This document shows positions 9,218 through 47,830 of a stretch of DNA of 64,000 nucleotides, piece by piece. The notes below the pieces were generated by a model. The model was not told where the DNA came from and did not search any database. It saw only the letters and a list, made by a program, of their open reading frames with translations. A program made the position numbers and the translations under genes. Numbering within the stretch: the first letter of the stretch is position 1; every line of letters begins with the position of its first letter. The stretch is from Octopus vulgaris (lineage: Eukaryota), in contig OX597819.1 in assembly GCA_951406725.2 (NCBI GenBank), positions 35,278,001 through 35,342,000 of the forward strand. Direction: 5' to 3'.

Positions 9218-9272
<55 letters not shown>

Positions 9273-9280
<8 letters not shown>

Positions 9281-9717
9281 TTGAACTTCTAAATGTCTCA
9301 GAGAGACATGAGCAGTTGTGGGGTGATATAGTGGTTGTATACTGTCAACTCAACGTGACAGTCCCACTATATCGCCCCACCACCGCTCATGTCTCTCTGA
9401 GACAGTTAGAAATTCAATATTTCTAATTTTGCTGATCAGTGAATAAATTTCACTGAAAATATTATATATTTGCAAAGTGGTTGCAGCCATCTCAGCTAGC
9501 AGGATTTGCTACCCTGGACTGATGACGGGCAAGACCCAGAAACATGCATGTCTTCAGGTGCTAATCCTAGCTGGCAGGGGTGCTTGCCTCCCCTTTGCAA
9601 ATATAAGGACACAGGAAATGTGTCAAAGCCGACAGGAAGCGTCGATGCTTCCTAGGGCTAAATAGCGGTGGTGTGATTCCTTTTACGGGACTGTCACGTT
9701 GAGTTGACAGTATACAA

Positions 9718-9719
<2 letters not shown>
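9273..9719 (+). mobile_element. Non-coding hammerhead-bearing element (retrozyme-like or Penelope pLTR-derived) with inverted 5' segment, between (TA)n tracts
   Basis: 9273-9334 is the reverse complement of 9364-9425 (5 mismatches); 9333-9365 is the exact reverse complement of 9687-9719; hammerhead inside; (TA)n on both sides. Confidence 0.65.
9513..9558 (+). ncRNA. Type I hammerhead ribozyme motif (near canonical)
   Basis: cctgga-CTGATGA-c ggg caaga ccc a-GAAA-catgcatg-TC-ttcagg: stem I cctgga/ttcagg, core CUGAUGA and GAAA, palindromic stem III, GUC cleavage triplet at 9550-9552. Confidence 0.8.
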
Positions 9720-9780
<61 letters not shown>

Positions 9781-9815: not shown

Positions 9816-9974
9816 AGATATATTTTTTCAACGCATAAATACTAAACAGTATATATAAAGGATAAAATCCTTTTTAAAAGCAGAAAAATTTACTGGCAAA
9901 TTTTTCTGCTCTTAAAAAGGATTTTATCCTTTATACATACTGTTCAGTATTTACGTGCTGAAAAAAATATATCT
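9816..9974. repeat. AT-rich imperfect palindrome (about 76-bp arms, 6-nt spacer)
   Basis: ...aaaggataaaatcctttttaaaagcagaaaaattt-actggc-aaatttttctgctcttaaaaaggattttatccttt... Confidence 0.85.
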
Positions 9975-21760: not shown

Positions 21761-23089
21761 TAGCTACTTACCACACAGCCACTCCTACGCCTATAGCTAC
21801 TTACCACACAGCCACTCCTTACAGTCTATTTTTTTGTTTGGTCCTGCTCTACATTAATTTTTATATCCTCCATGGCCCACGCAATGTAAACTAAATAAAC
21901 CCCAAAACCAATAATGAAATATGAATTTAATTAAAAAAAAATAATAATTCACACCTTTAGCCATAAACGATGAATACAAATATCAAATTAAGTAAAATTA
22001 AATAACACAATTATGATCAAACTCTTGAAACAATATTTTTCTAACAAATTATAGAGCATGATTATGAAAAACTCATGTTACAATGTTGTCCTAAATATGC
22101 AAATATCACTGTGACCCACTAAAAAATTTTGTGTGGATCACATCTGGTTTATAGCTCATCTAGTATATCACTGTTTTAATGTAACCCTGGAAGGCTATTA
22201 AAAGGATTGTTCCTGCTCTTAGGTCATAGAATTAATCTATAGGCTGGCTTACCTCCCCACCACCACCACCCTGACCTTGAGTGTCTTTAGTGGTGTCCAT
22301 TCTGATGCAAACATTTGGGCCAGGTCTCCAGTCTGAAGAAAACTTCTTCTTCAATCTTGGAAGCCCTGAACAAAGCCCTGAACAAAGCCCTGAACAAAGT
22401 CATGTGCTGTCCCTCCCACACTGACTAAATCCTCAAAAAAAAAAAAATTTTTTTAACTGTTTCTTGAGAAATATATTTATAGAAATGTCAACTTGAAAGA
22501 GGTTAATGAGAAAAAGTAAAAAAATTATAGTAAGGGATTGATTACAGATTATTAAAATAATATATTTTTAAGGATGAAATAAATAATAAATATTTTTCAT
22601 GCCAGAATAATTTTTCAAATATTAGAGACATAAGACAGTAAATTTTTCTTAATAATTCATATATAAATCCATTCTTGAAAGAGCCTATAATGTAACCAAA
22701 AAAAAATACAAAACAAAAAAAAGTGAAATTTAGGAAATGATTATGAAGAACATATCACAAAAGAGCCAAACAACAACAAAAGTTCCTTTTAGCAGCTAAG
22801 ATTTACAGTAAGACAAACTTTGTAAAAATTCTTCAAACATATTTTATAAAGGAAATCAAAATAAAACATGGAGTCTAAAACACCCAGTTTAATGGAAGAC
22901 AGTGACAATCCTCTTTTCCAGCATTGTTTGGTACTATTCAAAATAAAAGGAATCAAATATAATGTATACATAAAAAAGAATTAATAGGAATCAATTAAAT
23001 ATATGTAAATGTTCTTTCTGCCAATCTAAGTATGATGTTTTTGAAGTAAAGAAGAAGAAAGAGAAGAAAGAGGTTAGAGCAGTTAGTAC

Positions 23090-24172
23090 CTGGTGCATAC
23101 TGATAACCTTGAGCTGTGTTGGCAGCCAAATTACTGTAGTCTGAATTTTGGTCTGTGTACATGTAATCATTGGGGTAGTCACCCCAATTGTAAGCCTGTG
23201 CTGTATTCTGGACATAGTTGACACCATCTTGGTTAATACCAGAATTTTGAGGTTGAAGAACAGGATAACCATTATTATAAGTAGCAGCTACCTTTTGTTG
23301 GTAAGCATAGTTATTTCCAGAATAACCATACAAGTTCTGTTTCTGAGGGAACTGACTATTGTCTGAGATATACTGACTGTCCATATAATTCTGGTTAGCA
23401 GTTTGATAGCGCTGTCTTGATCTTTGTGGTAACTGAACTTGATTATTAGCCCCAGGAAGCAACTCCTCTTGAGAATCACCATTGAGTCTATTGTAAGACT
23501 TTGGTTGGTTTATAGCAAACTTTTGATTTTCTTCAGCAATCAGACCAGATTGTTTATGTCCTGATCCTACAAAACCTTGATTATCAACTTGGTTTATGCC
23601 TAATTGCTGGTGTTGGTTTGGGTAATTTGATATGAAATTTCTATTGCCAACATACTGAGGGTTCACATCAGGATGTTTTTGATATTGTGATAGCTGATTT
23701 TGATTCCATATTCTATTTGAAGAAGCTGAATTTGCTCTGTGTCTGTCAGTCTCTCGTGATGAAGGCTGAATTATATCTTCACCGAGAGAGAGTTTCTTTG
23801 AATTTCCATCATTTTCTTGAAGTAAATCCTTAGAGCCATCACTTTTAACCCAACCTTGATTGATGTTGGTGTTATGATTAGAAAATTGTTGTCCTTTACC
23901 TCTCTGAGCAACAGGTGGATTTGAAGTTGCAAATTCTTTTGGATTGAGTAATGCTTCTTTTGGTTTGTCCTTTTTTATCATAGTTTCAGTATTATACTTA
24001 GCTATTGGTAACTGACCTTTCTGTTTTAATAGTTTATTACTGCTTTCATCATGCCGAGATACACTAGGACCGACTGGTTTCAATTTTATCTTTCTGAACT
24101 TATCAGTAGGCATTTTCTTGGGATTAGCATCCACTTGGTAAAGAATTTCATTTTGCCTTCCATCTTTGAATG
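23090..24172 (-). CDS. LRP11: Exon 5 of the LRP11-like gene: large low-complexity K-rich then Q/N/Y-rich region
   Basis: 1083-nt open frame in AT-rich DNA; acceptor ttgttcag|CA gives phase 1 continuity; donor G|GTACTA (weaker) gives phase 1. Confidence 0.82.
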
Positions 24173-26394
24173 CTGAACAAATCATCGAAAAATTTCAGGT
24201 TAATGCCAAGATAAATAAACAAGACATTTGTTAAACTATAAGTACCGTCTTTGCTTCAAAGCAGCAAAACAATTTCAAATAACACTGAATAACTCTTCGC
24301 AATTGACAAAACTGTATGCTTTTATTTTAATAGAAGTACAAAGAAAAAATATTACCACAAAATGAACATTCAGAAATATAATTTAGAAATTAATATTGAT
24401 AAAACTCAAAATAATTTAGCATTTCACAGAGGATAATCCATAAACAATTTTGAAATAAATCATTTTAAAGTGATATGAACCATTTTATGGTATTAGATTT
24501 CTTTTCATTTTCATTTTATTTTCTAATCTTAAGAGACAAAACACATCTAACATCTACTATGAATTCAATCTCTAAAACAACCTTCAGAGTTTTATAAAAA
24601 GTGTTTTAAAAACAAAGGGTTGTTTTAAATACAAATTATGAAATTTGTAACTTTTTAATGATCAAAGAATTCAGTTTCATAGTAGGGGTGTAGAGTAAAT
24701 TTTTTTAAAATTTAGCTATAAGCTTAAAGCTGAAAGGAACATCCCATAAGTAAGAAAATAGTCTATAATCCAACTAATTTGATTACTTCTTAAAGCTTAA
24801 GGTCTTTTTAGAGTTAATTTTCTCAACATTAGTACAGTACATGAACATATTTTAACAGAGTCAAAGCAAAATTGACTCTGGCATGAAGCACTGGTATTTT
24901 AAAAAATATCATAGAGCTCTTTACTATCAGTGTCAACTCCACTACTAGGCATAAGTAATGTAAGCAAATAGATAACTATAAATGAAATGTATATGGCATA
25001 TGTCATGTGAGTTACAGCTTGGTCCTGCAAATATAACATGAGCTACTATTTGTAAATATCAAAAATGATATGTTATGAGGATAGTTTTAATTTCATTCTT
25101 TAAATCATTACTAGTTAGGATTTGCAAAGAAGTATATCTGCTTATTTAATGTAATTTAAGCGCTTCATTACAGAAAATTGTACCTCGTTTGTTATGTTGA
25201 ATTTTATTGCATTAAAAAGTAGTAGTAATTTATTTTGCATCTCAAACATATTATTAAACTTACTTAACATAATTATTTTATTGCAGTAGTTGAAAAATAG
25301 AATATTAAAATAATTGTGCTTTTTACATAAAAATGAAGCCTGAGAATTTTAGATGAGATGAAATTTGGGGTTGTAACATTCATATCATTGTTAAAAGCAT
25401 GAGCAATATAATCAGAAGGAAAGAGTTTCAGCTGGAAATTAAAACTAGATGATAGACTTTAAAAAGAAAGTATTAAAAAGTAAGGGATGAGGATTAAAGC
25501 AATTCAAGGTTGTTATTTTTTTTTTTTTTGCATGAATAATATTTTATCAAGGATACAAATAACAGAAGGAATTTATTAAAGATTAAAAACAATATTTGAA
25601 GAAATAAATATATAAGGAAAAATGAGATAAATGGTATCTAATTGAAATATTACAGTTTTCAATTTGGATCATGGTATCACTTATGTCATTGATTATAATA
25701 TATGATCTTGGAGCAGGACATGAGAGGAAGTGATGAAAGTTAGATCTATTGATGAGCCTCACACAAAAGATGACACTAAACTGAGAGAAGTAGTGATATA
25801 TTGTGCAGTTCATGAGAAAAAACAAACTGATGTTTAAAATATGATCATGATGATGATAGTAATGATGCTGACAAGAAGGATTTGTAAACTACATAGAGAA
25901 GTAGGAATTGTAGAAATTAAGATGTATTTGAAACTAGATTTACAAAAATATACATTTGGTTGTAAATTAAAAAAAAAAAATAATCATAATTTCTGAAGGG
26001 AGGGGTGAAGAAGAAAAATAAAACATTTCAAAATAATTATAATAATGATTCCTTTACTTGCCACAAGGGCACAAAATAATAGTAATAACATTTAAATATA
26101 AATACTGAAAGAGGAAATGGAAGATAGTTATGACCAATGGTTCCGTTACATTCTCAGAATGCATCAACATGCAACATTCCATTTTAAGTTCAAATTAAAG
26201 TAAAAAAAAAAAAGAAAACAAACAAAATATTTACAATATATGACAATAAAAAACAAACATAGTTTTAGAGAATGATAAAAGGAAAAAAAATGAATAAATA
26301 AAAAAAGTAACGTGATACGAGAAAGCACTTTGACATTAGTTTAGCTAAACTAAGGCAAAAATGAAGAGGCAAAAATAAGAAACAAAATATTTAC

Positions 26395-33665: not shown

Positions 33666-34568
33666 TTTTTTACTGATGCATTTTATCAAACAGGGAGGCA
33701 GATGAAAGGTAGAGTTAAGTAGGTGTACAAAAGGAAACTAATGTGAAACTAGATACTGCAAAGTATTTTCAGTCAGCATACATTTTGATTCCCATTGGTG
33801 ATACACACACACACATACTCATATATATATGTATGCTGCAGTTTGGAGAAAAATTCTAGCACAAAGGTTCTTAACTAAAATCATGACAGAAATTTTATAT
33901 TTGAATATGAACACTTTAAAACAGTTTTGTATCATGGAATCTATCAGATGTGGATAGATATCAAAAGGGTAAGAGAGGGCCTTGACAGTTACTTTAGAAT
34001 GTAGTATAAATGAAAAAAAAAAAAAAGAAAAGAAACAGGAGCAGAATTGTTAGCACACCAGGCAAAATACTTAGCAGCATTTTATCTGTCTTTATGTTGA
34101 GTTCAAGTTCTGCCATGGTCAACTTTGCCTTTCATTCTTTCAGGGTTGATAAAATAAGTACCAGTTGAGCATTGGGGTCAATATAATTAACTTACCTCCT
34201 CCCCCAAACTTGCCGGCCTCGTGCAAAAATTTGAAACCAATCATCATCATTTAACATCTGTTGTCCATATTGGCACGGACTGGATGGTGTGACCAGAGCT
34301 AGCAAGCCAGGACCAGATTCCAGTCTGACTGGACCTGGTTTCTATGGCTGGATGCCCTTCCTAACGCCAACCACTTTGCAAAGTGTGCTGGGTGCTTTTA
34401 TGTGGCACTGCACAGGCACTTTTACATGGCACTGCATGGGTACTGTACAAACACTTTTACGTGACTCCACACAGGTGCTTTTATGTGCATGGGCGCTTTT
34501 ATGTAGCATGCAAAAGTACATAGAATAAAGAAAGAAAACTATAGCAAAATAAATAAACATTTGGTTAC

Positions 34569-34842
34569 CTATTTTTGTTCTTTTTTTCAAAGTAGTAGGC
34601 TGGAATGTAGTATGGGTTGTTGTTGTTGTTGTAGTTGTGGTACTCTGTACTATAGAGTCCTTTGAAGAGCCTTGGTTATCGAGGCCTGCCAGTTCACTTT
34701 CATGTTTGATTGCAAGGTGTGCATGAGATGTCTCCACTTTATTTTTTATTTGCTGGAAATTCATGGAGATGTAGCTGTTGTGTGGGGCAAAAACACAAAC
34801 ACTTGGATTTCCACAGTCAAAAAGGTAACAGCTGTGGTCCTT
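34569..34842 (-). CDS. LRP11: Exon 2 of the LRP11-like gene: C-terminal half of MANSC domain plus Thr-rich linker
   Basis: Acceptor ttttgcag|AAG (NAGNAG); KDHSCYLFDCGNPSVCVFAPHNSY completes the MANSC cysteine pattern in frame with exon 1; donor G|GTAACC (phase 0 to 1). Confidence 0.88.
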
Positions 34843-35028
34843 CTGCAAAATTATAGTATGAAAAAAAAAAAATAAAGCAATTTTCGTGAAGAGCAAAACA
34901 ATTTAATCTTAGAAGAATAAAGGAAATGCATTTTGTGACAATGTTTTAAGATGGTTTATAATAAAATCTACTATATCATATCAGCAGTAATAGTGAAACT
35001 GTTGCTACGACCACCACTACCATAGCCA

Positions 35029-46908: not shown

Positions 46909-47190
46909 AGAGCAAAAGCAAACTGCTCTAATATATATATATATATAAGCAATTAGCCCACCTGTCTATACCTCATTTATAGTGTGTTTTACTTATTTAA
47001 GACGTAATTGAAAAGCGTACTTTGAGTGATATTTGGCAGTTATGCATGACAGGTTGCACGATTAAGAAGTGGCTCCTCCATTGACTTGATTATAAAGGTG
47101 TGTGAAATGTTGTGCTAGGATATCCTCAATATAAAAAATAATAATGAATATATAAACATATATATATATATATATATAATGCACATTTAC

Positions 47191-47637
47191 CTTATTCTCG
47201 AATATAGCTTCATTGCATCCTTTTGTGTCACAGCATTTTTTGGCACAGTCCATACTATTGACAGCCTGGGCATATTTCATGAATTTTGCTCCCGCTGTCA
47301 GAGAGCTGTTTGTTTTGATGATGACGCTTGTATTCTTGTTATAGTAGCAGACGCCATGCTCAGCCTGTGATCCAGAAACGGATAACGTACCCGAATTATC
47401 CCGATCGGGTGTTTTTATATTTCCTCGCAGATTATCTGCCTGTTTGGTGGGTGTTTGTGTTTCACTCTGGGCATCATCACTGTTTTGCAACAAATCCTGT
47501 TGGCCCCGCTTCGATCGTTCCAGTCTCTTACTCAACCTAATAGCTATAGAAGGTCCTTGTTCAAAGTCCTCAGCGATAAATTCTGAAGCTAAACAGTATA
47601 AAAATATACACGGAAAGATAAAAAGAGGTTTCATCAT
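47191..47637 (-). CDS. LRP11: Exon 1 of an LRP11-like (MANSC-EB-LDLa) protein: signal peptide, RSKR site, N-terminal half of MANSC domain
   Basis: aaaacaATG start; hydrophobic N-terminus MMKPLFIFPCIFLYCLAS; MANSC-type IIKTNSSLTAGAKF..CAKKCCDTKGCNEAIF; donor AAG|GTAAAT at 47190 (phase 0). The symbol is a family-level assignment from domain architecture, not proven orthology. Confidence 0.85.
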
Positions 47638-47639
47638 TG

Positions 47640-47830
47640 TTTTAAATTTTAAAAAAGGGACAAATTATGGATAATTCATAAGCAATAATTAGACAGGCAT
47701 TACACAAGACGGTCGACGAACGGAACCATTTTTGGAGACGCGAGCATGCGTTACCGGAAGTTATTGGAAATGACATTTCGGAATGAAAATAACGTCGAAG
47801 AAAATCACAAGCATACGTCACAAAGGAAAA
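47640..47830 (-). promoter_or_regulatory. Putative CpG-retaining promoter/5' UTR of the LRP11-like gene
   Basis: Local CpG density far above background; ETS-type CCGGAAGT at 47754-47761; YY1-like AAAATGG on the minus strand near 47726-47732; GCATGCG motif; directly upstream of the ATG. Confidence 0.55.

Follow-up and report, generated by a model that had tools for sequence, protein, structure and literature searches.

A 64,000-nt stretch of Octopus vulgaris DNA, hereafter the window, harbours at positions 9366-9719 a 354-nt unit with a type I hammerhead and an adjoining inverted arm, recognized by sequence comparison and embedded in (TA)n. In all likelihood, this element is a decayed copy of a non-coding 354-nt hammerhead repeat that was copied from RNA and inserted by the reverse transcriptase (RT) and endonuclease of an autonomous Penelope-like element (PLE). 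We are similarly confident that it acts like a solo pseudo-LTR (pLTR) turned parasite, i.e., a non-LTR retrozyme or non-autonomous PLE. Non-LTR retrozymes are a known class; the window family is apparently, and provisionally, undescribed in print.

In the proposed mechanism, a TATA box and initiator inside an upstream unit would start an RNA near position 128, which would run through the junction between the end of one unit and the start of the next. The PLE endonuclease would cut AT-rich DNA, and each of the two cut strands would prime on its own, at the unit end in one case and at the tail end in the other, leaving a head-to-head scar as in the window copy. The hammerhead is predicted to be a weak cutter alone and a better one when paired, so that monomer release would be limited to the rare copies with two hammerheads.

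Anatomy of the window copy and its hammerhead

The direct arm (9366..9719, plus strand) is one full, non-coding, pLTR-like unit of 354 nt, which ends at the main 3' end of the family. The inverted arm, read on the minus strand of 9273-9365, consists of the unit end (B, unit 322-354) followed directly by the unit start (A, unit 1-60). Its inner, 5'-truncated part (9333..9365) is identical to 9687-9719 at 33/33 positions. The outer part (9273..9332), termed the “tail”, reaches the second preferred 3' end of the family (positions 58-70) and matches unit 1-60 at 55/60 positions; five mismatches in 62 result if the shared CC at 9364-9365 is counted, a 2-nt microhomology where the inverted and direct arms meet. 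The copy is enclosed by its target microsatellite, (CT)15 then (TA)13 on the left (9220..9274) and (TA)29 on the right (9720..9778). Re-reading of the sequence thus bore out the original prediction, which had described this hammerhead unit with its B-then-A inverted arm and the same mismatch counts, (TA)n on both sides and no credible ORF; the unit contains only three ATG ORFs of 35-47 aa.

The unit folds far more stably than expected (z = -8.4; 0/100 shuffles equally stable), and a long hairpin extending stem I of the hammerhead is predicted at 9465..9607 (plus strand). On the same strand, a TATA-like box (TATTATATATTTGC, 9460..9473) is the putative promoter, and an initiator-like TCAGCT (unit 127-132, 9492..9497) the putative start site, a layout resembling the TATA box and initiator of pLTRs in the accessible part of PMC3846280. 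ORF1-only elements insert at this TCAGCT site in other copies; in the window copy the site is empty. A search of the window yielded no further family copy besides 9273-9719 and no PLE protein match, and the unit lacks an ORF for RT and GIY-YIG endonuclease. The window copy has a single hammerhead, the inverted arm having none, and therefore could not release a monomer. It is an aged, decayed member of a dispersed repeat family.

Two other features of the window lie outside the element. An AT-rich hairpin with 69-nt arms, 91% complementary, is located at 9823-9966, about 45 nt to the right of (TA)29, and found no match among the other loci compared. The minus-strand segments 47065-47664, 34345-34902 and 22998-24194 are probable exons of a MANEC/MANSC-domain gene.

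The hammerhead occupies 9513..9558 on the plus strand. It comprises stem I (9513-9518/9553-9558), the core CTGATGA (9519-9525), a stem II of 3 bp (9527-9529/9535-9537) with a C9526-A9538 mismatch at its base, GAAA (9539-9542), a palindromic stem III (9542-9551) and GTC (9550-9552), with the cut predicted after C9552 (unit 187). Rfam returned no hammerhead family at the gathering score or at E<=10, so that the call is based on anatomy and covariation. The weak Rfam matches to miRNAs stem from the hairpin formed by the inversion and from (TA)n. Another hammerhead-like motif, at about 9431-9475, was discarded because 30 aligned copies showed no conservation of its would-be core.

Among 22 hand-picked hammerheads, 92.3% of cells pair and 11/13 pairs show double-sided changes, counts that overstate the number of independent events as the sequences are related. 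The covariation score is reached by 0/500 shuffles, and slid controls score far lower. A stem II pair alternates between G-C (57) and A-T (46), with three discordant cases (n=106), which may reflect one ancestral change. Judged from these alignments, the helices of the hammerhead covary across sister families around an invariant core. Within the family, conservation of the core is barely higher than the background median (0.977 vs 0.962), as expected for copies that decay neutrally. Ribozyme activity may be low, since pair 10.1-11.1 is unpaired in 14/22 sequences and the active fold is predicted at -28.1 vs -32.0 kcal/mol for the best local fold, i.e., 3.9 kcal/mol above it. Stem III can self-pair between molecules (-13.3 kcal/mol), a predicted interaction that fits a ribozyme acting as a dimer, as described in the accessible part of PMC4209133.

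A dispersed family with Penelope-type insertion scars

The genome searched comprises 2.80 Gb in 227 contigs. The unit gave 85 matches among the 40 scored of 2492 first-look candidates, and the full-length matches among these 40 are 88-95% identical to the window unit. Exact queries returned 228 matches for core plus stem II and 119 for a 22-mer downstream of the hammerhead, with 0 matches for either control. Sister units of the same size occur at 72-80% identity, and two more distant hammerhead units with similar layout were seen. The family is dispersed, multicopy, non-coding and non-autonomous.

Insertion ends were surveyed at 92 loci picked solely by the 22-mer, which represent most of the 100 listed among the 119 matches; L169, L174 and L179 were left out as duplicates, and L223/L224 and L230/L268, which look like duplicated segments, were kept in the counts. 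The 5' ends are ragged and randomly truncated, and the 3' ends are fixed at two positions: the right-hand end is the unit end at 51 loci, that end extended by a tail of about 62 nt at 32, and another position at 9. An inverted arm, with both 3' ends facing outward, is present at 35/92 loci. These 35 inverted insertions include 27 with one tail and one unit end, the window copy among them, one with two unit ends, none with two tails and seven unassigned cases. Hence, the tail is found at exactly one end in 27/28 resolved inverted insertions (p = 3e-8 vs independence). Flanking repeats of at least 9 nt occur at 27/70 loci vs 3.4 in shuffled pairs, and (TA)n abuts the right end at 28/92; the target duplication of the window copy is not resolvable inside (TA)n. 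A 9-bp hairpin is predicted at unit 40-62 (9405-9427 in the window); its last base is also where the tail ends, and it may define the second priming site.

PLEs are characterized by partial tandems, a truncated copy in inverted orientation next to them, a tail confined to one of the two ends, 9-10 bp target duplications, and a TATA box and initiator in the pLTR, according to the accessible parts of PMC8557442 and PMC3846280. The origin of the tandem and inverted structures is called an open problem in PMC8557442. The family displays several of the Penelope-type features, namely pLTR-forming partial tandems, an inverted truncated copy, a tail at one end, and target duplication with a (TA)n bias.

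A SINE or a DNA-level foldback element or MITE, bearing a hammerhead-like motif by chance, would account for the lack of an Rfam hammerhead, and the inverted arms do look like terminal inverted repeats. Yet, these arms vary in length and are absent from 57/92 loci, the combination of fixed 3' and ragged 5' ends points elsewhere, and all three helices covary around the invariant core; we consider such an origin improbable in the extreme.

A wider survey covered 320 distinct arms at 205 loci and includes loci chosen as full-length or dimeric, so that its proportions are biased upward. The end-to-start (B-A) junction, for which the original prediction had advised a genome search, was found in genomic DNA in 147/320 arms. 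It is an ordinary Penelope-type partial tandem or tail junction and loses its value as a sign of a circle; since the junction exists in genomic DNA, junction-spanning RNA-seq reads cannot discriminate either. The reading as a long tandem array was likewise not supported: two hammerheads were seen in 11 arms, and no arm has three junctions or forms a three-unit array. Moreover, a monomer released by the hammerhead would run from 188 to 187, and not from 1 to 354. What stands of the earlier proposal of a Penelope-mobilised element is a non-coding, hammerhead-bearing, multicopy, non-autonomous family with Penelope-pattern scars; the circle or array reading of the junction is not supported.

The proposal that the two window arms stem from different repeat units fared no better. 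The mismatch counts of 0/33 and 5/60 do not differ significantly (Fisher p = 0.16), 0/5 subfamily-informative sites differ between the arms, and of the five mismatches two are CpG-type changes, the other three being alleles with a frequency of 2%. Across the family, duplicates within an insertion differ at 44/660 (tandem) and 72/795 (inverted) informative sites, compared with 29% between loci. Like the arms of most insertions, the two window arms were likely made from one kind of template and diverged through subsequent decay.

Candidate helpers, possible RNA templates and nested cassettes

Candidate helpers are intact in the genome. Sixteen of 150 scored GIY-YIG matches lie in 781-aa frames of Neptune type, which carry RT and GIY-YIG domains (Pfam), and a second candidate is a near-identical 727-aa Hydra-like family that by eye resembles Hydra-1_Obim. 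The latter, at L337-L374, is a very young PLE family, with 150 scored matches at 98-100% protein identity and many 727-aa frames, including tandem and inverted pairs. Intact Neptune-type PLEs at L061-L064 carry a second upstream ORF of 333-479 aa without a clear Pfam match, and their pLTR harbours a possible U3-A8 variant of the hammerhead, noted by eye.

None of the 65 GIY-YIG and 38 Hydra-like loci inspected, some of them overlapping and few of the about 6000 candidates in each case, has a terminus homologous to the unit. Reading 3 kb upstream of 40 further hammerhead loci revealed no autonomous partner. PLE neighbours at L334, L069, L049, L228, L168 and L186 are separated from the unit by (TA)n or unrelated DNA. 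These data bear on the idea that every copy is a truncated pLTR end of an autonomous PLE, unsampled or lost, and that the 354-nt unit has no independent life. The unit is laid out like a pLTR (TATA, initiator, hammerhead, tail), and the PLE families are thinly sampled. On the other hand, beyond the unit end (junction present in 147/320 arms) comes the start of the unit again, and the sequence goes on across its full length to the same end, leaving no place for an ORF; PLE fragments near the arms vary in position and strand (205 loci); and the diverged sister units are of the same size. The original prediction had named as its refutation that all copies be termini of coding Penelope elements, and no copy examined ends a PLE ORF. 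We regard this possibility as very unlikely and already largely refuted, and favour a repeat mobilised in trans by a PLE.

How the RNA template of this PLE-mobilised repeat was formed is a separate matter. A full retrozyme cycle, in which self-cleavage of dimer transcripts would yield a 354-nt monomer, its ligation a circle, and rolling reverse transcription of that circle the partial tandems, is a sub-case of the favoured explanation and not an alternative origin. Consistent with such a cycle, a 9-mer dimer query found two-hammerhead copies, seven in the window family and four in a sister family (30 loci examined of 34 matches), and in the wider survey 11/320 arms have two hammerheads; a query of two exact 13-mers was too strict and gave 0 matches, compared with 42 for a gapped control. 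The copies read through the cut site, where 5' ends do not pile up (1/82 starts at 186-190, 1.8 expected). Rare alleles are common to tandem duplicates 14x above background (30/5251 vs 0.0004 per site), the unit is predicted to fold well as a circle (-136.9 kcal/mol), and at L168 one arm, 741 nt long, reaches further than a transcript initiated at 128 would. In mussel and axolotl, units of similar size form circles, as stated in the accessible part of PMC7229834.

Several observations argue for a linear template instead. The longest arm, the one of 741 nt, corresponds to about 2.1 units, and no trimer was found among 320 arms. BLAST starts fall at 124-152 in 9/11 two-hammerhead arms, in two of these because a half-LINE sits upstream, and on direct alignment three such arms start at about 126-128, as a linear RNA from the inferred start would. 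Single-arm 5' starts at 115-136 show a weak excess (13/82 vs 7.9 expected, p = 0.05). L098 combines hammerheads of two different subfamilies within one insertion, and 8/9 Xenopus dimers tested did not cleave, as given in the accessible part of bioRxiv 10.64898/2026.07.22.740005. Taken together, the full cycle is conceivable but in our judgement somewhat doubtful.

L098 (= L195) is the one clear subfamily switch at the cut site among 11 pairs compared and thus anecdotal: its upstream hammerhead region belongs to another subfamily, and the sequence after the core shares rare alleles. It possibly records a template switch near the cut site. The sole triple match in the trimer search was a 50-bp minisatellite. 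This array (L207/L211/L316, G000:C23:42842500-42843720) contains about 18 tandem copies directly upstream of a sister-family dimer, and the repeat covers the stretch between the inferred start site and a point shortly before the sister-family cut site; it could record repeated copying of a 5' cleavage product, or later minisatellite growth. Most of the unit is covered by contigs from four sequencing runs presumed to be RNA, and two of these runs share their depth profile with two large runs of unspecified type; no inference on expression or circularity is therefore drawn from this coverage.

In some copies the unit is interrupted by a 1.65-kb cassette, whose ORF of about 470 aa includes a CCHC knuckle, producing forms of about 2.05 kb that consist of unit 1-140, the ORF, unit 131-354 and the tail. 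The cassette is a separate ORF1-only, LINE-type insertion, positioned at the inferred start site (unit 127-132). A cassette-only query found 30 loci: in 24 the hammerhead comes immediately after the cassette, in three the cassette is nested in the same site and in three it lies elsewhere, proportions possibly biased by a query taken from a hammerhead-adjacent copy. Where a hammerhead is present, the cassette is found 21-40 nt upstream of its core; in unrelated hosts it sits about 30 nt below TATA boxes. Of 44 junctions, which are not independent, 19 have a TATA box 22-36 nt upstream, vs 4% background. The cassette family (L107-L155, e.g., L135:1682-3082 on the minus strand, L112 and L124) includes many intact frames, and cassettes stack head-to-tail at about 1.8-kb spacing (L136, L137, L152). 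The ORF1 protein gave one weak match in one search and has 431 unnamed relatives; Pfam zf-CCHC falls just under the cut-off, and Atlas neighbours are of the CCHC/ZCCHC3 type at 0.90-0.92, which serves as a lead only. Some composites of unit and cassette later moved as one piece with PLE-type scars. At L111, a SINEU-like stretch between (TG)n repeats is fused to the cassette; this upstream stretch presumably resembles the 5' end of U1 snRNA.

The unit-ORF-unit forms of about 2.05 kb could suggest a 2-kb element with a gag-like protein, which has the unit as its terminal repeat and gave rise to the 354-nt form by deletion. In accord with this view, the cassette is part of some 5'-truncated and some inverted copies (L081, L086, L096, L108, L123, L126). 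However, the cassette ends in AATAAA and a short A-rich tail, and its flanking duplications of 10-20 nt track the local subfamily. It occurs in unrelated hosts (sister families, an LTR-like promoter and other TATA sites), nests in its own site, can be 5'-truncated with the duplication intact (L112, L124), and is present in only 3/60 unbiased arms. Such target-duplicated, independently truncated insertions already refute a gag-like origin, which we consider exceedingly unlikely.

Beyond the favoured PLE-mobilised repeat, we put forward a more speculative joint reading, which as a whole is rather unlikely: a three-tier parasite system, in which a circular-RNA retrozyme with its own TATA promoter would be retrotransposed by a PLE that shares no terminal sequence with it, the two fixed ends would represent two priming events per insertion, and an ORF1-only half-LINE would land at the start site, borrow the promoter and hitchhike on the PLE machinery. 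If this reading were true, a 354-nt substrate would make the unsolved mechanism of PLE integration directly testable.

Comparison with known systems

The comparison refers to the accessible parts of the cited sources. The ORF1-only LINEs HAL1, HeT-A and Ag-Sponge (PMC5786205) and the target-specific Tx1 elements (PMC4494074) pertain to the nested cassette only, which shares with them the ORF1-only structure, an end with a poly(A) signal, target duplication and insertion into other repeats. In contrast to these elements, the cassette lands just upstream of a hammerhead core and below a TATA box, at the distances given above.

Endonuclease-bearing PLEs such as Neptune, Hydra (including Hydra-1_Obim) and Adineta Pen2/Pen3 (PMC8557442, PMC3846280, PMC4209133) share with the window family a pLTR, an adjacent inverted 5'-truncated copy, a tail at one end only, target duplications of 9-15 nt, a preference for (TA)n, and a hammerhead with TATA box and initiator in the repeat. 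The window unit differs by lacking RT and endonuclease, by a tail of 62 nt rather than 30-40 nt, and by a canonical hammerhead, which is minimal in these PLEs; it has no sequence match to the PLE termini examined in the genome. Chlamys elements, including MRC1 (PMC8557442), similarly parasitize PLEs, are non-coding, and form both pLTRs and copies joined head-to-tail. Yet, they usually share their 3' end with a helper, whereas no shared end was found for the window family among the PLE loci sampled, and most lack hammerheads.

The supplement of PMC8557442 contains an octopus PLE with a different hammerhead, Hydra-1_Obim. The remark in the original prediction that no description of the family in cephalopods was known therefore has to be narrowed: a hammerhead PLE had been recorded in octopus, and five window-family motifs searched in the accessible part of that supplement gave no match. 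In the literature surveyed, searches for a cephalopod retrozyme led to PMC8557442 only, and the family counts provisionally as undescribed.

The closest counterparts are the metazoan non-LTR retrozymes (Cervera and de la Pena 2020, PMC7229834; Li, Clavereau and Pollet 2026, bioRxiv 10.64898/2026.07.22.740005). Like the window unit, they are non-coding and about 350 nt in size (mussel 350-390, axolotl 330/350; PMC7229834) and have a hammerhead of type I whose helix III is short and palindromic; the mismatch at the base of helix II is U-U in axolotl HHR_Amex2 and C-A in the window unit. In both cases monomers and dimers occur and PLEs reside in the same genome. The unit falls within the published size range of 170-400 nt and has no LTR features, and its GC content of 45.2% lies at the published border of <45%. 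By hammerhead, size and lack of coding capacity the window family is a non-LTR retrozyme, cleavage being predicted and a circle hypothetical. The window copy itself is not “active” in the sense of Li et al. (2026), having one complete hammerhead where two consecutive units are required.

Both papers propose mobilisation by PLEs, and the window family fits the view, taken in the 2026 preprint, of retrozymes as non-autonomous PLE derivatives. Unlike these retrozymes, the window family is dispersed and exceeds about 2.1 units in none of the arms surveyed. Earlier support for PLE mobilisation came from co-occurrence and sequence similarity, including that to pLTRs; the window family shows PLE scars directly and adds evidence at the level of insertions, with hundreds of small scars that bear the PLE signature and an almost strict pairing of a tail end with a unit end within inverted insertions. 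With its 354-nt length, lack of coding capacity and many natural insertions, the unit lends itself to probing how tandem and inverted structures form, and the family extends the retrozyme class to a cephalopod.
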